Below, in pieces: positions 168-6,453 of a stretch of DNA of 22,351 nucleotides. This DNA comes from a virus. Numbering within the stretch: position 1 is the first letter of the stretch; each line of letters begins with the position of its first letter. The notes under the pieces were generated by a model. The model was not told the origin of the DNA. It saw only the letters and a program-made list of their open reading frames with translations, and made no database searches. Position numbers and translations under genes: made by a program. The DNA lies in UHGV virus genome UHGV-0193089. The stretch is one strand, 5' to 3'.

Positions 168-746
168 TCACTCTCCTTTGATGCCAATGCCAGCGGCGCG
201 GGAATCATCCCATCGCTTTACTTCTTCACGAATTACGTCAATGCATTCTTTCGAATCCATTAGGTAATCTTCATCAAAAAGACGTTCCTGTTCGTTTTCT
301 ATCGCAACAATGATTGCTTCAACTAACTTTTGTGCCTGAGAACCACTTTCTAACTCTGCTATGCGCTTACTCCCATCAGAGATAACACCTTCGTAATACT
401 CACGCTGCTCGTTGAGTTTTGATTTTGCTGCTTCCAGCTCAACGCGCAACTTCCCTACCGTTAGTGCAATATCCTCGTTCTCCTGGTCGCGGGATTTGAT
501 GTATTGCTGGTTCCTTTCCCGTTCATCCAGTAGTGCCAAAGCAATCTTTGGATTAAAGGCAGCAATAAATTCAGCGTTGTTTTTCAGAACGTGTTGCGCA
601 ATGGCCTGACTACTTAGTCGGACCTCATAACCACGTGCGCCACGGTGTGGTTTATATGAGTCCCAGTCTCCCCACGTTGCTTTTTCTGCCGCCTCACGCA
701 GTACCTGATAGTCAATCTTGCTCACTGGTTGCCTCCTTTGCGCCAC
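168..746 (-). CDS. Ead/Ea22-like coiled-coil protein (tentative family call)
   Basis: 192-codon track ORF; acidic, heptad-rich sequence typical of Ead/Ea22-like proteins of lambdoid early-left regions (recalled, not searched); packed tightly against neighbouring minus-strand genes. Confidence 0.6.
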
Positions 747-889
747 ATCGCATTCAGATATTTGTTTTGATTCACTGAAGGAAAAGAATTTCTCTTAAGC
801 AATTCCTCTCTCGATGGCATTGGCTTTACGCGTTGGCGAATAATCATTTCTGCCGGAAGAATGCCGGGATTGTATGCACGTCCTCTCAT
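722..889 (-). CDS. small hypothetical protein (55 aa)
   Basis: Internal Met51 of track ORF 722..1039; GAGGA SD 7 nt upstream of ATG at 889-887; the longer track ORF would overlap the upstream gene by 140 nt. Overlaps the Ead-like start by 25 nt. Confidence 0.3.
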
Positions 890-899
890 GGTAAATTCC

Positions 900-1193
900 T
901 CAGTCATTACTGATAGCGCCATAGCGTGAGCGGTAATTACGCAGGCGCGGGTCAATTTCAGGGAAGTGGGTATATGTGGCTTTGCGGAATGGTCGGATTG
1001 ATGTCTGGTAAATTCGCTCGCGTTCTTCTTTCTCTGCAAGCCATATACAGTGGCGAAATTCCTTTTCCTCTTTCGTTTCCTGCGGTAGAGACATTATTCG
1101 ATCGTAGTTTTTTCTGAATTTATCCAGCACCTCCGATACGGAATTGCCGGAACAGCGGCGCGCGTCATCCGCACCATACAAAGGCGCTGGCAT
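900..1193 (-). CDS. hypothetical protein (97 aa)
   Basis: Track ORF in the same orientation and packing as the early-left operon; no family recognised. Confidence 0.55.
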
Positions 1194-1600: not shown

Positions 1601-2205
1601 TAAGCAGCCGCCCCTTCTAATTCGTCTCGTCTGATGTTGTAAACGTCCTGCGCTTTTTGCTGCTCCGGTGTGCCTTCGAGCATCTTCCACGCTTTGGCGA
1701 ACGCCTGTTTAAGCTCTTCCACGGTGTTTTTCTGCAATGCTGCGTCAGTGAATGCTTTTAGAACCTGTTCAGGTGTAGGTGATGGTTTTGATTGCTTTGC
1801 TGCTGCGTTCTGCTGATGTTTATGCTCGTCTGTATCTGCATCTTTCGCATCATCAATGCCGAACAAACCATTGAGGCAATACTTGCGTGCATAAGAGCTT
1901 GTAGCTCCCGTAACTTGTGCAGAATCCATTCCTTTCTTGCTTTCTTCCTCTCGTGCAAGAGCGGTTGCCGTATGGCTGTTTTCGCCATCGGTAATAGTTG
2001 CCGTGGCTTTCACGTAATACCGATCACCAATCAACACAACTTCATCGCTGATTGATAAAAACAGACCATTCAGTAACGGCTTAACGCCTTCAAGAATATC
2101 TTCGCAGCTTCTGTATTTATATTTACCGAATGAGTTGTACTGATTCTTTGGCGCGTTCAGATTCTCCTGAATGGCTGCCAGCCTTGCATAAAATTCTTTG
2201 CTCAT
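1600..2205 (-). CDS. erf: Erf-family single-strand annealing recombinase
   Basis: 201 aa; N-terminus MSKEFYARLAAIQENLNAPKNQYNSFGKYKYRSCEDILEGVKPLL matches phage P22 Erf as recalled. Confidence 0.9.
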   Translation of the reverse strand: MSKEFYARLAAIQENLNAPKNQYNSFGKYKYRSCEDILEGVKPLLNGLFLSISDEVVLIGDRYYVKATATITDGENSHTATALAREEESKKGMDSAQVTGATSSYARKYCLNGLFGIDDAKDADTDEHKHQQNAAAKQSKPSPTPEQVLKAFTDAALQKNTVEELKQAFAKAWKMLEGTPEQQKAQDVYNIRRDELEGAAA

Positions 2206-2215
2206 ATGTTTGTTC

Positions 2216-2386
2216 TCAGAATGGACATGGCCAAAGGAAATAACGCTGATTTAATACTTCGACTCGGGACAAATTAAGGCATACCCGCATTCCTTCGCGG
2301 TCGCCATTATGGCGATACCAGAGAGCTTTCTGCGTGTACATGCGTCTCTGTAACTTGCTCTCCTTTACTGTGGTTGCAAGTGACAT
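2216..2386 (-). CDS. small protein (56 aa) at the arf position upstream of erf
   Basis: ATG at 2386-2384 with an AAGGAGA SD; MSLATTVKESKLQRRMYTQKALWYRHNGDREGMRVCLNLSRVEVLNQRYFLWPCPF; stop is 10 nt upstream of the erf start. Below the track size cut-off. Assignment is positional only. Confidence 0.4.
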   Translation of the reverse strand: MSLATTVKESKLQRRMYTQKALWYRHNGDREGMRVCLNLSRVEVLNQRYFLWPCPF

Positions 2387-2465
2387 GAATATCTCCTTCG
2401 TTACCGATTAATTCTTTCATCTGACGAATGAATTCTTCGTCTGACCAGTTATCTGTAAAACTCAT
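2307..2465 (-). CDS. small protein (52 aa) at the kil position downstream of cIII
   Basis: Met11 of track ORF 2307..2495; ATGA overlap with the cIII stop; overlaps the previous feature by 80 nt in another frame, so one of the two may be spurious. Confidence 0.35.
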   Translation of the reverse strand: MSFTDNWSDEEFIRQMKELIGNEGDIHVTCNHSKGEQVTETHVHAESSLVSP

Positions 2466-2632
2466 GGACGGCCTTGTTGTTTCAAAATATCCCAAAGCTT
2501 TTCGAGCAAACTTTTCATTCTTGGTTGTTTAAAGTCTGCTCCGGTTAAAATGTTTTTTCGTGAATGCTGTACCGATAAAATCGGGTTGAAAGGGCGAACC
2601 GATGCCGCCCCTGCAATAGCGAACTGTTGCAT
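2462..2632 (-). CDS. cIII: CIII-like protein (protease-inhibitor/regulator family of lambdoid phages)
   Basis: Met50 of track ORF 2462..2779 with AAGGAG SD 6 nt upstream; MQQFAIAG...LWDILKQQGRP resembles lambda CIII (MQYAIAG...LIDILNQPG). Confidence 0.8.
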   Translation of the reverse strand: MQQFAIAGAASVRPFNPILSVQHSRKNILTGADFKQPRMKSLLEKLWDILKQQGRP

Positions 2633-2694
2633 AGGATGCTCCTTCTGTTTGATTGCATAACGAAAACGCCTCGAGTGAAGCGTTATTGGTATGC

Positions 2695-2723
2695 ATATAA
2701 AAAGGCCCCCCACATCGGAGGGC
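2695..2723 (-). terminator. intrinsic terminator in the cIII leader (N-sensitive tL-type)
   Basis: Minus strand reads GCCCTCC-GATGT-GGGGGGC followed by CTTTTTATAT; 7-bp GC-rich stem with one mismatch. Confidence 0.5.
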
Positions 2724-2785
2724 AAAGAAGATTTCCAATAATCAGAACAAGTCGGCTCCTGTTTAGTTACGAGCGACATTGCTCC

Positions 2786-2813
2786 GTGTATTCACTCGTT
2801 GGAATGAATACAC
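2786..2813 (-). repeat. perfect 9-bp inverted repeat (hairpin) just downstream of the 67-aa gene stop
   Basis: GTGTATTCA (2786-2794) and TGAATACAC (2805-2813) with a 10-nt loop; no U-tract on either strand, so not a classic terminator. Confidence 0.5.
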
Positions 2814-2818
2814 AGTGC

Positions 2819-3022
2819 TTATTCGCGAGCTTTGAGCATTGCGTCTGCAAACTTATATGCAGCGCTTGCTGCATAATTAACAACTCCATCAGAATCATTA
2901 TCGATAATCGATGGATTGCTAATCATTGCTTGCATAGCCTTTGCCGCGAAGTAATCGCGTAATGTCGCATCACTTGCCATTTCTGGGCGTTTGATATCTG
3001 CTTCATAAAACTCGCACATCAT
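2819..3022 (-). CDS. hypothetical protein (67 aa)
   Basis: Track ORF; ATGATG start with GGGAGGTGA SD; ATGA overlap with the stop of the upstream 98-aa gene (translational coupling). Confidence 0.6.
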   Translation of the reverse strand: MMCEFYEADIKRPEMASDATLRDYFAAKAMQAMISNPSIIDNDSDGVVNYAASAAYKFADAMLKARE

Positions 3023-3315
3023 TCACCTCCCAGAGCCTTGCTGATTGCTGCAAGACCTTTATTAACAGCTCCATACCATTCTGGATATGTTGTCGTTGTT
3101 CTATTTTTGGATTGCTTAAGTAATAACTGAAGTGCTTCGAGAAGGTCAGGTGCTGCCGCTATTAGATTGGCATCTTCAATACATTGAACTACCTCACAGA
3201 TTGCAATATACGAACGCCAGCCTGCGCCATTTTCAAGTGAGTCTGCCTGGATTATTTTAATCTCATCGCCATCCATCATTATTTCCCACTTGCCTTCAGT
3301 ACCTTTAAATTCCAT
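3019..3315 (-). CDS. hypothetical protein (98 aa)
   Basis: Track ORF; AGAGG SD upstream of ATG at 3315-3313; no family recognised. Confidence 0.65.
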   Translation of the reverse strand: MEFKGTEGKWEIMMDGDEIKIIQADSLENGAGWRSYIAICEVVQCIEDANLIAAAPDLLEALQLLLKQSKNRTTTTYPEWYGAVNKGLAAISKALGGE

Positions 3316-3336
3316 GTTAGCCTCTGTTGTTTATGC

Positions 3337-3362
3337 CAAAAATAAAGGCCGACTATGCGGCC
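3337..3362 (-). terminator. intrinsic terminator downstream of the 156-aa gene
   Basis: Minus strand: GGCCG-CATAGT-CGGCC followed by TTTATTTTTGG; hairpin abuts the stop codon at 3362-3364. Confidence 0.55.
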
Positions 3363-3832
3363 TAGTAGAATACCCAATTTTCTGTTTCTTGGTTGTGTCC
3401 AAAGTTATATTCAATATCTGGTGTTGATGTATCAATATTCTTCATCCCATCAACAAGAGTTGATACAACAGCCAAATCTTGTTTGATTCTCATTAAATGG
3501 TATTTCTTCCGGCGCAATAAACTTTCAATGGCAAGTTTCTTCGTTGGGAATGCAAAAGATCTTTCTGCATTTTTTGCTACTTTCTTAATTGCATATCTAT
3601 TTCTCCTTTGTTTCCATTCCTGTAACCACTGATTTGGTGCTGGTTTAAAATTAACAATCCAATGCGCAGGAACCAACCATGCATAATGCTCTGTCTGATG
3701 AAAAGCTATATATTGAAGTGCGAATATTTTTATCCCATCTTCTTCAACTGTCGCCTGGAATCTCCAGAAAACAGGCATTCCATCATGTTCAGTTTCTGAT
3801 TCAGGAAAAGGTACGCTCCATGATTTTGTCAT
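3362..3832 (-). CDS. hypothetical protein (156 aa), unknown function
   Basis: Track ORF; ATG at 3832-3830 with GAGGTGAG SD; no TM segment; basic central region (KQRRNRYAIKKVAKNAERSF...); no family recognised. Confidence 0.7.
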   Translation of the reverse strand: MTKSWSVPFPESETEHDGMPVFWRFQATVEEDGIKIFALQYIAFHQTEHYAWLVPAHWIVNFKPAPNQWLQEWKQRRNRYAIKKVAKNAERSFAFPTKKLAIESLLRRKKYHLMRIKQDLAVVSTLVDGMKNIDTSTPDIEYNFGHNQETENWVFY

Positions 3833-3886
3833 ATCTCACCTCAAATAAGTGGTTTGCTGCGAAAGTAAATACGCTTAAGTTACCTG

Positions 3887-4024
3887 TTATTTATCCCACC
3901 AAGTTCCGTATCTATCTATCCAGTTACACCAATCATCGACACTCCATTTTGTCGTGTCGCATTTTGGCAACTGGCATGAATATCTACCTTCTTTGTAAAG
4001 TCGACGTTTGACTTTCTTGAGCAT
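3887..4024 (-). CDS. small Trp/Cys-rich protein (45 aa)
   Basis: Translated by hand: MLKKVKRRLYKEGRYSCQLPKCDTTKWSVDDWCNWIDRYGTWWDK; ATG at 4024-4022 with the same GAGGTGAG SD as the neighbouring gene. Below the track size cut-off. Confidence 0.4.
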   Translation of the reverse strand: MLKKVKRRLYKEGRYSCQLPKCDTTKWSVDDWCNWIDRYGTWWDK

Positions 4025-4140
4025 GGCTCACCTCAATCGTAATAAGCTGGAATTGATTTTCCGCGTTGCTTCTGGCGACCAACACAAGTCACACCCATTT
4101 CACTGCGTGGCTTGCTGTAATAAATTCGGTTAGTTCAGAC

Positions 4141-4163
4141 AATAAAAAACCCACCGAAGTGGG
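4141..4163 (-). terminator. intrinsic terminator immediately after the 112-aa gene
   Basis: Minus strand: CCCAC-TTCG-GTGGG followed by TTTTTTATT; stem abuts the TAG stop at 4164-4166. Confidence 0.6.
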
Positions 4164-4502
4164 CTATGACCATTTTTTATTTGGATTTCGTTGGTGAGCG
4201 TGATTAACAACTCTGTGCATTACATCCTCATATTTTTCATCTTCAATTTTTTCGACATCGCGAGGAAATGGTGTTGCTAATGCTTTGTCAACTTTATCCA
4301 TTGGGTCTTCATTAATCTTATATTCAGGACCGTCATCTATAGCATTAAATCCAGGTGTTACACCGTTTTTTAATGCATATGCTATCCTCTTTTCCCATCT
4401 CGCTATTCTCCTCCTGTCTCGAGATGTAAGACCTCTATCAGATACTTTTCTGTTTTGTCCGCGGTCAGGATTAACATAAATAGTCTTTTTCACCATAAGC
4501 AT
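4164..4502 (-). CDS. hypothetical protein (about 112 aa), Arg-rich N-terminal half
   Basis: Track ORF 4164..4508 begins at a TTG overlapping the N stop; the first ATG is at 4502-4500. No family recognised. Confidence 0.6.
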   Translation of the reverse strand: MLMVKKTIYVNPDRGQNRKVSDRGLTSRDRRRIARWEKRIAYALKNGVTPGFNAIDDGPEYKINEDPMDKVDKALATPFPRDVEKIEDEKYEDVMHRVVNHAHQRNPNKKWS

Positions 4503-4504
4503 AC

Positions 4505-4810
4505 TCAATAAGCACCGTACGGTAGTTTACTGTACAATTTTATTTTTTGGACTGCATGTATTTTGTTTCCTAATGGGTTTGAATCTTTGTAATAAATACT
4601 TCTATTTTTTCGAACAACTTCTTCTTTCTTCTTGCAGCAAAGGATTCCTAGTGATGCTGCTTTGTCTGCTTTGACGCAACCAGAGAGCTTTAGCGCAATT
4701 TTTCGCGCCAGTGCTTCATTACTGCGTCGCTCGGCAATAAGTTCTGCTCTGCGAGCTTTGTAGCGGCTTTTTGCCGTACCTTTGGATTCTTTCCAGACAA
4801 TGGTTACCAT
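4505..4810 (-). CDS. N: N-type transcription antiterminator with a phage-21-type arginine-rich motif
   Basis: Met11 of track ORF with AGGAGA SD; GTAKSRYKARRAELIAERR matches the phage 21 N ARM peptide as recalled; first gene downstream of pL/nutL. Confidence 0.8.
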   Translation of the reverse strand: MVTIVWKESKGTAKSRYKARRAELIAERRSNEALARKIALKLSGCVKADKAASLGILCCKKKEEVVRKNRSIYYKDSNPLGNKIHAVQKIKLYSKLPYGAY

Positions 4811-4920
4811 GATGGTCTCCTTTAAGTGGCTTTGGCGCATGACGCGTCGAGGTGCTTATCTTCTCGATCGCTGTCTTGCAGCTGCAATTCGCGCCATCCC
4901 CAAAACCACTCAAGTTCTGG

Positions 4921-4962
4921 TCTCAACGGTTAGGTTGAGAGTCCGTCGATGTTAAAGAGCCT
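4921..4962 (-). promoter_or_regulatory. nutL (boxA plus boxB)
   Basis: On the transcribed (minus) strand: boxA GCTCTTTAAC (4952-4961), then boxB hairpin TCTCAAC-CTAACC-GTTGAGA (4921-4940); same CUAACC loop as the nutR hairpin. Confidence 0.55.
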
Positions 4963-5006
4963 GCCAATCTGTTCCGTTTGGCTTCCAGCGTCCTGCTGAT
5001 GGCTTA

Positions 5007-5060
5007 AATTTAAGACTTCTTAATTTATTGGTCAAGTGCATTTTTGAAGAAAACTTAATT
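5007..5060 (-). promoter_or_regulatory. OL operators and pL promoter
   Basis: 18-bp sites ATTTAAG-ACTT-CTTAATT (5008-5025) and TTTGAAG-AAAA-CTTAATT (5043-5060) resemble the OR half-site pattern; leftward -35 TTGACC (5035-5030) and -10 TAAATT (5012-5007) with 17-nt spacing. Confidence 0.5.
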
Positions 5061-5100
5061 TTATGGGCGTGAATTTAGTTTGTCTTTGATTTTTAACGGG

Positions 5101-5124
5101 AAATAAAAAAGGGGCGAAAGCCCC
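5101..5124 (-). terminator. intrinsic terminator of the repressor transcript
   Basis: Minus strand: GGGGC-TTTC-GCCCC followed by TTTTTTATTT, starting directly after the c2 TAA stop (5125-5127). Confidence 0.6.
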
Positions 5125-5775
5125 TTAAGGAAGGTTTGCTAGCTTGGCATCAACGACAACGCCAATGATTTTACAGTTCCCATTGATTTCAATCATTGGG
5201 TATTGTGGATTGAGTGGTTTCAGGAATTTTCTACCGGCATCAATAACTAACTTTTTGAATGTCGCCTCGTTTTCCCCTTCAAGTTTGGCGACTACCAGCT
5301 TTCCATTACGTGGTTCGACTTCTGGGTCGACGAGAATAATCATCCCCTCAGGAATACTCAGTCCTGCCGGGGCAGTCATTGAATCGCCTTTAACGTCGAG
5401 CCAAAAAGAGTCTTCAGAACAATCTACCGTTGTGTCGTACCAGTTATCTATTGCACGCCTATGATATGGCTCTACAGCTTCCATCCAACATCCTGCGCTT
5501 ACCCAACTAATTAGAGGATACGAACCTCTTGGATCATGCCTGCTGTGATAGGCAATGTTTGAAAGACTATCCTCTCCTTTCAATAGGTAATCAGGGGAGC
5601 ACTGCAAAGCCTTGGCTAAGGCCAATAGGTTTTCGCCATTGGGCTCAGTTTCAGATCGCTCCCATTGGGAAATAGCAACATTAGACACGCCAACCATCTT
5701 GCCAAGGGCAGCCTGCCTAATCTTGAGTTCTTTTCTGCGAGCGCGAATACGCTCACCCATCAGTTGTGTATTCAT
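5125..5775 (-). CDS. c2: prophage repressor, P22 C2 type (HTH N-domain, LexA-like self-cleaving C-domain)
   Basis: 216 aa; MNTQLMGERIRARRKELKIRQAALGKMVGVSNVAISQWERSETEPNGENLLALAKALQCSPDYLL... matches P22 C2 from memory over its whole length. Confidence 0.95.
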   Translation of the reverse strand: MNTQLMGERIRARRKELKIRQAALGKMVGVSNVAISQWERSETEPNGENLLALAKALQCSPDYLLKGEDSLSNIAYHSRHDPRGSYPLISWVSAGCWMEAVEPYHRRAIDNWYDTTVDCSEDSFWLDVKGDSMTAPAGLSIPEGMIILVDPEVEPRNGKLVVAKLEGENEATFKKLVIDAGRKFLKPLNPQYPMIEINGNCKIIGVVVDAKLANLP

Positions 5776-5855
5776 AGTTAAGACATCTTAAATAAACTTG
5801 ACTTAAGATTCCTTTGGTGGATAATTTAAGTGTTCTTTAATTTCGGAGCGAGTCT
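5776..5855. promoter_or_regulatory. OR operators with divergent pRM/pR
   Basis: Three 18-bp operator-like sites: AGTTAAG-ACAT-CTTAAAT (5776-5793), ACTTAAG-ATTC-CTTTGGT (5801-5818), ATTTAAG-TGTT-CTTTAAT (5824-5841); rightward -35 TTGACT (5798-5803) and -10 GATAAT (5820-5825); GGAG SD before cro. Confidence 0.7.
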
Positions 5856-6041
5856 ATGTACAAAAAAGATGTTATTGACCACTTCGGAACCCAGCGTGCT
5901 GTTGCTAAAGCACTAGGCATTAGCGATGCAGCAGTCTCTCAGTGGAAAGAAGTTATCCCAGAGAAAGACGCCTATCGATTGGAAATCGTTACAGCTGGCG
6001 CCCTGAAGTATCAAGAAAGTGCTTACCGCCAAGCGGCATAA
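5856..6041 (+). CDS. cro: Cro repressor, P22 type
   Basis: 61 aa; MYKKDVIDHFGTQRAVAKALGISDAAVSQWKEVIPEKDAYRLEIVTAGALKYQ... matches P22 Cro as recalled. Confidence 0.9.
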   Translation: MYKKDVIDHFGTQRAVAKALGISDAAVSQWKEVIPEKDAYRLEIVTAGALKYQESAYRQAA

Positions 6042-6047
6042 GCAAAT

Positions 6048-6090
6048 TGCTCTTTAACAGTTCTGGCCTTTCACCTCTAACCGGGTGAGC
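6048..6090 (+). promoter_or_regulatory. nutR (boxA plus boxB)
   Basis: boxA TGCTCTTTAACA (6048-6059); boxB hairpin TCACC-t-CTAACC-g-GGTGA (6071-6088) carrying the same CUAACC loop as nutL. Confidence 0.55.
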
Positions 6091-6156
6091 AAACATCAGC
6101 GGCAAATCCATTGGGTGTGCCGCTATAACTCAATATCAATATAGGAAAATTAACAA

Positions 6157-6453
6157 ATGGCACAAGCAAGCTACAGCAAGCCAACACAGCGAGAAATTGA
6201 TCGCGCTGAAACTGATTTACTCATCAACCTGTCAACGCTTACCCAGCGCGGTCTGGCAAAGATGATTGGCTGTCATGAATCGAAGATAAGCAGAACGGAC
6301 TGGAGATTTATTGCTTCGGTCTTGTGTGCTTTCGGAATGGCATCAGACATCAGTCCGATTAGCAGGGCTTTTAAGTATGCGCTTGATGAAATCACAAAGA
6401 AAAAATCCCCGGCCGCCACCGAGGATTTTAAGCAAATTGATATGCAATTCTGA
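6157..6453 (+). CDS. c1: CII-type transcriptional activator (P22 C1-like)
   Basis: 98 aa directly downstream of cro/nutR; HTH-like segment LTQRGLAKMIGCHESKISR; position and size fit the cII/c1 family. Confidence 0.8.
   Translation: MAQASYSKPTQREIDRAETDLLINLSTLTQRGLAKMIGCHESKISRTDWRFIASVLCAFGMASDISPISRAFKYALDEITKKKSPAATEDFKQIDMQF

Follow-up and report, generated by a model that had tools for sequence, protein, structure and literature searches.

Organization of the early-left operon

The window, i.e., the whole stretch of 22,351 nucleotides that was analyzed (virus genome UHGV-0193089), carries a variable accessory slot between nun and the structured cIII leader, within the early-left (pL) operon of a lambdoid phage of E. 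coli. The slot genes are four minus-strand open reading frames (ORFs), each preceded by a Shine-Dalgarno sequence, and pL, nutL, N, nun, the terminators and cIII all lie on a single strand. The features considered here are the following:

6048-6090, plus strand: nutR, matching nutL
5007..5035, minus strand: pL-like promoter from the promoter scan (TTGACC, 17 nt spacer, TAAATT)
4998-5019: operator-like palindrome, overlapped by the pL-like promoter
4921..4961, minus strand: nutL, with boxA GGCTCTTTA (4953-4961) and boxB hairpin TCTCAACCTAACCGTTGAGA (4921-4940)
4505..4840, minus strand: N-like antiterminator with an arginine-rich motif (phrog_271, E 7.6e-31)
4164..4508, minus strand: nun, HK022-type transcription-termination/exclusion factor (phrog_5632, E 4.8e-71)
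4148..4165, minus strand: tL1-like intrinsic terminator right after the nun stop codon (-10.3 kcal/mol, z -2.7)
3887..4024, minus strand: module 1, 45-aa Trp-rich basic protein (DUF5484, phrog_1871)
3362..3832, minus strand: module 2, 156-aa protein, annotated L0079 in 933W (phrog_1636)
3346..3363, minus strand: intrinsic terminator beginning at the stop codon of the 156-aa gene (-9.6 kcal/mol)
3019..3315, minus strand: module 3a, 98-aa acidic protein, PF27050-type (phrog_1273)
2819..3022, minus strand: module 3b, 67-aa acidic protein, translationally coupled to module 3a by an ATGA overlap
2781..2818, minus strand: 17-bp hairpin without U-tract, the conserved right-hand edge of the slot
2705..2723, minus strand: intrinsic terminator before cIII (-13.5 kcal/mol)
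2665-2684, minus strand: fourth terminator candidate (-9.9 kcal/mol)
2462..2632, minus strand: cIII, 56 aa, ATG with GGAG Shine-Dalgarno at 2632

The hairpin pattern of nutL had an expectation of 0.02 chance occurrences. The N-like ORF reached 18.1 bits against PF25694 (N_peptide), under the cut-off, and its arginine-rich motif (ARM), read off the sequence, is GTAKSRYKARRAELIAERR, which we take to be of the phage-21 type. The ORF at 4164-4508 shares 109 of 110 aa with HK022 Nun, an identity that extends to its arginine-rich motif and the KKWS at the C terminus, and the start of nun is likely the ATG at 4496. At the other end of the slot, the 105-aa ORF at 2462-2779 was rejected as an over-extended version of cIII, phrog_550 covering its residues 50-105 only. 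Further genes of the same pL operon are erf, ssb and abc2. A preliminary description of this DNA had reported four ORFs of 45, 156, 98 and 67 aa, the last two overlapping by ATGA, between N and cIII. These ORFs are real and were placed correctly, and they do belong to the pL operon, on the same strand; however, the abutting gene is the HK022-type nun, and N lies farther upstream (4505-4840). A sieB-like gene hidden on the plus strand was also considered and rejected, five antisense ORFs being without PHROG match. A search of the entire window against Rfam gave zero matches.

Such an architecture is textbook lambdoid biology. The N-to-cIII intervals of lambda (ral, sieB, ea10) and P22 (ral, gene 17) occupy the same pL position, after an antiterminator gene and a terminator, and likewise hold small, dispensable, mosaic cargo behind intrinsic terminators, through which N-modified polymerase reads. 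In contrast to these phages, nun is located here between N and the slot, and the four proteins show no homology to Ral, SieB, Ea10 or gp17. The nun region of HK022 has a Nun that is 99% identical and an equivalent terminator layout, but HK022 lacks an N gene, and nothing apart from IS903 occupies its slot, whereas in the present phage, as in mEp235 and mEpX1, nun is preceded by a 21-type N.

Modular composition of the slot

The slot is made of three independently moving modules, namely the 45-aa gene, the 156-aa gene and the 98-aa/67-aa pair. It had been described as one cassette, a view that is not supported because its parts occur independently of one another. Parts of the interval were found in 2154 of the 5426 complete E. 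coli genomes (~40%), while just 3 of the 5426 had at least 80% of it. In most of the 80 IMG/VR loci with an identical 156-aa gene, the other three genes were missing; a pattern with all four genes, in the IMG/VR (plus-strand) orientation, was found at a single one of the 84 tabulated loci. At 66 loci, the stop codon of the 156-aa gene lies within a few bases of the sequence that is found here after the 67-aa stop codon. In HK022, the nun terminator leads almost directly into the block that here follows the 67-aa stop codon, with IS903 adjoining; hence, the HK022 slot is empty. The 17-bp hairpin at 2781-2818 comes directly after the 156-aa gene in Stx phages, and after the nun terminator in HK022. 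That this is a variable lambdoid slot, as had been proposed, is borne out by its content elsewhere, which includes ral, Nmad5 and a P22 gp17-like gene annotated as “superinfection exclusion,” the latter in the same slot of PA28 and BUCT2930. The 156-aa gene is found elsewhere behind Nmad5 or ahead of the gp17-like gene, and in BUCT2930 the 98-aa/67-aa pair stands behind ral with the same linker.

The joints between modules consist of recurring linker, ribosome-binding-site and terminator sequences. The 45-aa gene is an insertion with GGTCGCCAGAA on one side and GCAGCAAACCACTTATTTGAGGTGAGAT on the other. As for the terminator at 3346-3363, its 3' arm, T-run and the linker TTTTGGCATAAACAACAGAGG move together with the 98-aa gene: in strain BUCT2930, the same terminator 3' half and linker stand between ral and the 98-aa gene, and the terminator is missing wherever the 156-aa gene has no 98-aa gene behind it. 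The module junctions are thus a clean example of gene shuffling via conserved terminator/linker sequences in the pL operon. Like the morons of HK97-like and lambdoid phages, which are organized as promoter-gene-terminator units, the modules are small independent insertions with terminators at gene junctions. They share with morons the downstream terminator and the insertion between conserved neighbors; unlike morons, they showed no promoter of their own in the consensus scan, and they are co-oriented within the early operon.

The slot genes and their families

All four genes are already catalogued as hypothetical proteins. The statement that they belong to no recognisable family did not hold, since the 45-aa protein is a DUF5484 member, homologues of the 98-aa protein are labeled PF27050.1, and all four match PHROG families, each without known function. 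The number of public contigs with the exact sequence ranges from 17 to at least 1000, and comparison with diverged homologues indicated purifying selection on the slot genes (pN 0.18-0.27 versus pS 0.73-0.89). Databases have listed these exact genes ever since the sequencing of 933W and Sf6, so that they do not represent a new kind of system.

The 45-aa protein scored 46.7 bits against PF17583 (DUF5484; cut-off 27, E 2.6e-12), is the exact sequence of the gene 36 protein (gp36) of Shigella phage Sf6, without any difference, and occurs in that form on 998 contigs. The identification of DUF5484 with the K-12 Rac protein YdaG was rejected, as the two gave no alignment and YdaG matches UBA-like models. 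For the 156-aa gene, megablast found 99.4% DNA identity across the gene and its flanks with L0079 of the Stx2 phage 933W, which is also 471 bp long, directly follows N and is annotated as hypothetical. However, L0079 stands alone in 933W, followed by ssb/ea10, whereas here the 45-aa gene and the 98-aa/67-aa pair flank the gene. The exact 156-aa sequence occurs on at least 1000 public contigs. This protein had been singled out as the largest unexplained gene and the prime candidate; since genes such as L0079 and Sf6 gp36 were already catalogued, it is an old orphan and not a new object.

The 98-aa protein is characterized by the motifs FKGTxGxW, DAxLIAAAPDLLEALQ and AAISKALGEE, between which variable N-terminal and central segments are swapped within the family. 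A precomputed PF27050.1 label is attached to its homologues down to ~58% identity, among them P0034, the representative of its own 90% cluster. The family is also found in prophages of distant phyla. A relationship with Ead/Ea22-like proteins (PF13935), raised by the xLIAAAP motif, was rejected: BLASTP gave no alignment, hhalign aligned the motif with a probability of 0.3%, and no Pfam match was obtained. The 98-aa and 67-aa proteins have neighboring accessions (EOU4490690 and EOU4490691), a pI near 4.6 each, and net charges of -6.5 and -4.5, respectively. A toxin-antitoxin reading of the pair was rejected because the pairing is not conserved, a 67-aa-like neighbor being present at just 2 of 20 loci on one-genome-per-species contigs, with the order reversed at 1 of these. 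Besides, both proteins are acidic and neither gave a Pfam toxin-antitoxin match.

Terminators and transcription of the slot

Three minus-strand intrinsic terminators had been predicted at 4141-4163, 3337-3362 and 2695-2723, and hairpins followed by T-runs were recovered at 4165-4148, 3363-3346 and 2723-2705. The first of them, distal to nun, has an identical sequence in mEpX1, and a rho-independent terminator is annotated in mEpX1 just upstream of cIII, in the stretch matching 2705-2723. Over positions 2000-6200, the terminator scan detected 12 sites, as compared with 4.1 +/- 2.4 in shuffled sequences. The leader upstream of cIII (2690-2830, 141 nt) is strongly structured (MFE -50.6, z -5.2), the 17-bp hairpin being its first element.

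Expression of the slot genes had been attributed to N antitermination or internal promoters. The components required by the former are present (pL, nutL boxA/boxB, the N gene and the terminators), whereas no internal promoter was detected: between the scan hits at ~2459 and 5007 on the minus strand there was no sigma-70-like promoter, hence none in the interval, in a scan that relies on the sigma-70 consensus and is blind to weak, non-consensus or other-sigma promoters. Expression from pL via N antitermination, i.e., as delayed-early genes, is therefore most likely. The nun gene of HK022 must be expressed in lysogens, and read-through from the cI transcript is thus possible, which could reach the slot genes despite the terminator.

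The 156-aa protein family

A first AF2 model of the 156-aa protein, based on 20 close homologues, had a pLDDT of 59.5. Addition of 55 distant relatives retrieved by exhaustive HMM search raised the pLDDT to 95. The predicted fold combines a beta-sheet and a long helix, and a fold search with this model returned no PDB neighbor. In the resulting 75-sequence superfamily, A101 alone is invariant, with G33, T47 and K87 nearly so, and no conserved catalytic residues were found. The protein has a conserved basic core, residues 61-120 having a net charge of +13, and K87, R91, R107, K109 and R115 are among its conserved residues. Sequence or fold comparison identified relatives in phages infecting Pantoea, Erwinia, Achromobacter, Delftia and other hosts. 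In the neighborhoods that were read, small early genes surround these relatives, and two of the three neighborhoods have DNA methyltransferases at a distance of 2-4 genes. Homologues in three other genera share the early-left strand, at differing positions. Taken with phrog_13631 and phrog_25384, phrog_1636 extends from lambdoid prophages to phages of Pseudomonas, Pantoea, Vibrio, Erwinia, Rhizobium and Bacteroidota.

Possible functions of the slot genes

An anti-restriction, anti-defence or superinfection-exclusion function had been suggested for this interval, and profile and structure searches gave it no support. Pfam, NCBIfam and PDB sequence searches with the 156-, 98- and 67-aa proteins yielded zero matches, and thus none to Ral or another anti-restriction family in Pfam or NCBIfam; PADLOC defence families gave 0 matches for all nine pL-operon proteins scanned. 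No transmembrane segment was detected in any of the four proteins (top Kyte-Doolittle 19-residue window <=1.41). The supplements of an anti-restriction accessory-gene screen contained none of these sequences, and literature searches on L0079, DUF5484, PF27050 and the PHROG families returned no experimental phenotype for any of the four families.

Taken as a whole, the slot genes are reasonably likely to be shuffled pL-slot cargo, expressed as N-dependent delayed-early genes and encoding binder proteins with a host-modulating or counter-defence role. A phage-21-type N would load at nutL, and RNA polymerase modified by N and coming from pL would pass the three intrinsic terminators, making the slot genes delayed-early. 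As small, soluble and apparently non-enzymatic proteins, their products would act as binders instead of catalysts. During lytic growth, the most likely ligand of the 156-aa protein would be nucleic acid or else a conserved host factor; for the acidic 98-aa and 67-aa proteins, host or phage proteins would be the most likely partners. The class that best fits these genes would be dispensable host-modulating or counter-defence cargo, and neither core functions nor prophage-expressed exclusion.

A sub-case of this explanation, which we consider rather unlikely, is that at least one protein serves as a dedicated inhibitor of host defence (e.g., Ral/Ocr-like anti-restriction), the acidic 98-aa and 67-aa proteins acting as protein or DNA-mimic inhibitors. 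It would agree with the presence of ral in the slot of other prophages, where the 98-aa/67-aa pair even adjoins it in BUCT2930, with the pI near 4.6 of both proteins, with the segment swapping in the 98-aa family, as expected of an arms race, and with the DNA methyltransferases near distant relatives of the 156-aa protein. However, neither Ral nor any other Pfam/NCBIfam family was matched, and the sequences are absent from the anti-restriction screen supplements that were searched. At -6.5 and -4.5, the net charges are modest beside those of known DNA mimics, and the occurrence of the 98-aa family in prophages of distant phyla argues for a general, not a strain-specific, target. Still less probable is a semi-housekeeping role of the 156-aa protein as an auxiliary nucleic-acid-binding factor of phage DNA metabolism (support of recombination, replication or packaging). 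The gene is missing from the related lambdoids HK022, mEp235 and mEpX1, is tied to no single recombinase type, being found with Erf, RecT or Bet, and encodes a fold unlike known SSB or annealing proteins, although the conserved basic core, the operon shared with erf, ssb and abc2, the family's spread across many phage types, and the proximity of ssb/ea10 in 933W and, in Pectobacterium, of a co-directional RecT gene at ~5 kb would all be compatible with such a role.

Prophage-expressed exclusion or defence guarding the lysogen, in the manner of nun, sieB or rexAB, appears the least probable of these explanations. Position speaks in its favor, as the gene immediately upstream is nun, known for its role in exclusion, the unit formed by the 45-aa and 156-aa genes is bracketed by terminators like a moron, and the gp17-like “superinfection exclusion” gene occupies the slot in PA28 and BUCT2930. 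Yet a strong terminator separates nun from the slot genes, the interval has no promoter-like site, and PADLOC gave 0 matches. Exclusion proteins of the SieA/SieB type are membrane proteins, whereas the slot proteins have no membrane segments. Furthermore, relatives of the 156-aa protein are found in Erwinia phage phiEa2809 and in the N4-like Achromobacter phiAxp-3 and Delftia RG-2014, all of them virulent phages, so that prophage defence would make no sense there.

We tentatively raise one further possibility, a doubtful one, that the 156-aa protein stands at the head of a phage family that has gone unrecognised (phrog_1636, 13631 and 25384) and, with its conserved basic surface, is a new kind of factor for early host takeover or counter-defence, with nucleic acid or some universally conserved host machinery as its target. 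The practical value of the locus is that of a pointer to this gene, which is carried by Shiga-toxin phages, is under purifying selection and belongs to a cross-phylum family. With a high-confidence predicted fold that has no solved counterpart, its product is a cheap and well-defined experimental target. In Sakai Sp5, an 83-aa ORF is found in place of the 156-aa gene.

Organization of the pL operon

The window derives from a lambdoid E. coli phage or prophage, whose early region is closest to those of phiv205-1, mEp235, HK106 and HK022. The four accessory genes belong to the pL operon, which has pL, nutL and N, and are placed behind three intrinsic terminators.

Features of the pL operon and of the accessory interval (coordinates, strand, feature)
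5125-5775, repressor gene, from which the pL operon elements run leftward
5035-5007, minus, pL-like promoter (promoter scan)
4953-4961, nutL boxA GGCTCTTTA
4921-4940, nutL boxB hairpin
4505-4840, minus, N-like gene (phrog_271, E 7.6e-31)
4164-4508, minus, nun (HK022 Nun, 109/110 identical)
4165-4148, minus, terminator hairpin and T-run (terminator scan; RNA fold -10.3 kcal/mol)
3887-4024, minus, 45-aa ORF, good Shine-Dalgarno sequence
3362-3832, minus, 156-aa ORF, good Shine-Dalgarno sequence
3363-3346, minus, terminator hairpin and T-run (terminator scan; RNA fold -9.6 kcal/mol)
3019-3315, minus, 98-aa ORF, good Shine-Dalgarno sequence
2819-3022, minus, 67-aa ORF, good Shine-Dalgarno sequence
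2723-2705, minus, terminator hairpin and T-run (terminator scan; RNA fold -13.5 kcal/mol)
2684-2665, minus, further terminator hairpin and T-run (terminator scan; RNA fold -9.9 kcal/mol)

The preliminary description had reported four ORFs, the last two joined by an ATGA stop/start overlap, and three minus-strand intrinsic terminators, all of which were confirmed. The terminator scan returned 12 sites in 2000-6200, versus 4.1 +/- 2.4 in shuffled sequences. The accessory genes are real: non-synonymous differences from diverged homologues amounted to 0.18-0.27 per site against 0.73-0.89 for synonymous ones, the latter being near saturation. The cassette had been placed between N and cIII, but the adjoining ORF is HK022 Nun. 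Hence, the gene abutting the cassette is nun, and the hairpin at 4148-4165 is its terminator. In mEp235 and mEpX1, too, N and nun are annotated in this arrangement. Downstream of the cassette follow a structured leader, cIII (2462-2632), two small ORFs, erf, ssb, abc2, a DUF2737 gene and ead/ea22. The two small ORFs match PHROG families labelled ‘recombinase’, and related phages annotate kil at about this position.

The 141-nt leader that separates the 67-aa stop codon from cIII (2690-2830, minus strand) was unusually structured (MFE -50.6 kcal/mol, z -5.2) and opens with a 17-bp hairpin (2781-2818) devoid of a U-tract. It possibly serves for RNA processing or for the regulation of cIII. The comparison covered its first ~70 nt, which in Stx phages bound the slot on the right as a constant block; HK022 has the beginning of this block, with IS903 sitting inside the hairpin. 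Besides, a 105-aa ORF at 2462-2779 (minus strand) is an over-extension through two terminators, cIII proper being 56 aa long, and the mEpX1 record likewise annotates a ‘cIII’ that is too long and contains a terminator.

Modular composition of the accessory interval

Of the 5426 complete E. coli genomes, 2154 contained pieces of the 1384-bp interval, yet only three had 80% or more of it, and the search of phage records gave none with as much. The parts thus occur separately, and the description of the interval as a single cassette had to be abandoned. It is made of three modules: the 45-aa gene, the 156-aa gene (L0079 in 933W) and the 98/67 pair. Among the 80 IMG/VR loci taken, which were those encoding the identical 156-aa protein, most were without the other three genes, and all four genes together made up one pattern, met once in 84 tabulated loci (IMG/VR, plus-strand orientation).

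This mostly separate occurrence is explained by the junction sequences. For 66 loci, among them the Stx-phage type (N, L0079, ssb, cIII in 933W), the 156-aa gene ends within a few bases of ...AATAAGCACTGTGTATTCATTCC..., which in the window is the sequence after the 67-aa stop codon, while ...GGTCGCCAGAAAATGAAATTAGGCAGCAAACCACTTATTTGAGGTGAGAT lies upstream of the gene. In the window, the 45-aa gene is inserted between GGTCGCCAGAA and GCAGCAAACC... and has a ribosome-binding site, TTGAGGTGAG, that is nearly identical (repeat D5). In HK022, the nun terminator gives way almost directly to the same ...ACTGTGTATTCATTCCAA block, which is interrupted by an IS903 end, so that the slot is empty. In strain BUCT2930, the 98/67 pair follows ral; GGCCTTTATTTTTGGCATAAACAACAGAGG again stands in front of it, with the end of ral providing the hairpin's 5' arm. 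The 3346-3363 terminator is therefore a joint used in common, and its 3' half travels with the 98-aa gene.

The GGCCTTTATTTTTGGCATAAACAACAGAGG linker, comprising the terminator 3' arm, the T-run and the ribosome-binding-site region (window 3330-3363; comparison locus L116 2040-2075, both minus strand), was found at several module junctions, where the 5' arm came from differing upstream genes. It looks like a recombination joint doubling as a terminator. Other fillings of the slot were Nmad5, the 156-aa gene and a TolA-like gene, or a nun fragment, the 156-aa gene and a gp17-like ‘superinfection exclusion’ gene. In the Sakai prophage Sp5 of E. coli O157:H7 (comparison locus L115, 4721-4972), an 83-aa hypothetical ORF, ECs_1180, occupies the place of the 156-aa gene of 933W.

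Such an architecture is ordinary: it matches the lambda ral-sieB-ea10 and P22 ral-17 intervals, as well as the moron concept except for the promoter, which is missing here. Identical proteins stand in public records (the L0079-annotated gene in 933W, Sf6 gp36, and E. coli contigs by the hundreds to thousands), so that the cassette is already known in kind.

Families of the four proteins and predicted fold of the 156-aa protein

The statement that none of the four proteins had a recognizable family proved wrong, since all four match PHROG families of unknown function, even though the 45-aa protein gave the only match in Pfam, NCBIfam and PDB sequences. This basic protein (5 Trp, 3 Cys) passes DUF5484 with 46.7 bits for a cut-off of 27 and is the exact Sf6 gene 36 protein, present on 998 contigs; the idea that YdaG is a DUF5484 member was refuted. 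The 98-aa protein matches phrog_1273 and has 240 homologues, nearly all labelled PF27050.1. Its family conserves the motifs FKGTxGxW, DAxLIAAAPDLLEALQ and AAISKALGEE, the variable segments between them being swapped, and extends at 28-49% identity to Flavobacterium, Stenotrophomonas, Dyella, Sphingobacterium, Planctomycetes, Eubacteriaceae and other genomes. A likeness of its motifs to Ead/Ea22 was not significant. The 67-aa protein matches C-terminal parts of phrog_2201 and phrog_37111 and has more than 1400 homologues, none with a Pfam label; the phage Sf101 copy differs by one residue. Both proteins of the pair are acidic (pI near 4.6). The pair and its 4-nt overlap are kept in strain SC407, phage CurroJimenez and strain BUCT2930. 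Beyond close relatives the pairing is not conserved, a 67-aa-like neighbor being found in 2 of 20 loci, one of them in reverse order. On CACSKA010000001.1 (comparison locus L094, 3001-3548), labelled Chryseobacterium sp. 18061, a 71%-identical 98-aa gene is followed by a 67-aa-like gene, an arrangement typical of enterobacterial prophages; this assembly could be mislabelled or contaminated. Public names of the four proteins are only ‘hypothetical’ or ‘prophage protein’, except for the Sf6 ‘gene 36 protein’ and a single 74-aa cluster member labelled ‘Transposase’, and literature searches on these gene families returned nothing.

The 156-aa family is the one feature with upside: it is found widely among phages, evolves under purifying selection and has a confidently predicted fold. 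A word-indexed search gave only 33 relatives, without Pfam label, the named ones all from Enterobacterales, and an exhaustive HMM search with their alignment yielded 87 cluster representatives, mostly of 130-160 aa and ~20-25% identity, among which no Pfam family recurred. The pattern that most have in common is YR...G...HETxC...K(K/R)VxK...RFAFxTKxxAxxxLxxRKxxQxxHLKR, and distant relatives fall in phrog_13631 and phrog_25384, both of unknown function. With the deeper alignment, the pLDDT of the AlphaFold model rose from 59.5 to 95.0 (pTM 0.82). The predicted fold has three long strands (residues 19-30, 33-46 and 50-55), a short helix (66-74), a strand (83-86) and a 33-residue helix (98-130); searches found neither a solved structural relative nor a Pfam model, and an AP2-like idea was a dead end. 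Across the superfamily A101 alone is invariant, G33, T47 and K87 nearly so, and so few invariant residues argue against an enzyme. The net charge of residues 61-120 is +13, whereas the termini are acidic. Where context was readable, the family genes lie among small early hypothetical genes, and in two of three cases DNA methyltransferases were found at a distance of 2-4 genes. The homologue is co-stranded with early-left genes just upstream of xis-int in Pectobacterium and Brenneria prophages, and between N and cIII in Cronobacter.

Expression and possible functions

Expression had been proposed to depend on N antitermination or internal promoters. The pL, nutL, N and terminator elements agree with the former; for the latter, the promoter scan listed no minus-strand sigma-70-like site between those at ~2459 and 5007. 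The accessory genes would hence be delayed-early, transcribed only by N-modified polymerase, and their products small soluble binders. We consider it reasonably probable that they are dispensable host-modulating or counter-defence cargo, with the 156-aa protein using its conserved basic face to act on nucleic acid or a conserved host factor; any specific target would be much less probable. A specific anti-restriction or anti-defence activity, which is a sub-case of such cargo, appears unlikely. An auxiliary role in DNA metabolism is still less probable, and slightly below it stand exclusion genes expressed from the prophage: the scan showed no promoter in the cassette, no transmembrane segment and no PADLOC match was found for any of the four proteins, and relatives occur in virulent phages, all of which disfavors this explanation.

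The operon encodes both an N that we take to be of phage-21 type, from its arginine-rich motif GTAKSRYKARRAELIAERR and the nutR boxB TTCACCTCTAACCGGGTGAG, and an HK022-type Nun (99% identical), its own nutL and nutR boxB being 21-type. Nun acts at lambda-type boxB and would therefore exclude lambda-type phages, leaving the own N system unblocked. The nun gene lies downstream of N and of a terminator at 5109-5126. As established for HK022, Nun must be made in lysogens, so that some transcription should enter this part of the operon in the prophage state and could pass the 4148-4165 terminator. At the left end of the operon (168-1193, minus strand) lie the P22-type anti-RecBCD gene abc2 (900-1193), the DUF2737 gene and an Ead/Ea22-like gene (168-746); with abc2, one counter-defence function is thus already accounted for outside the cassette.
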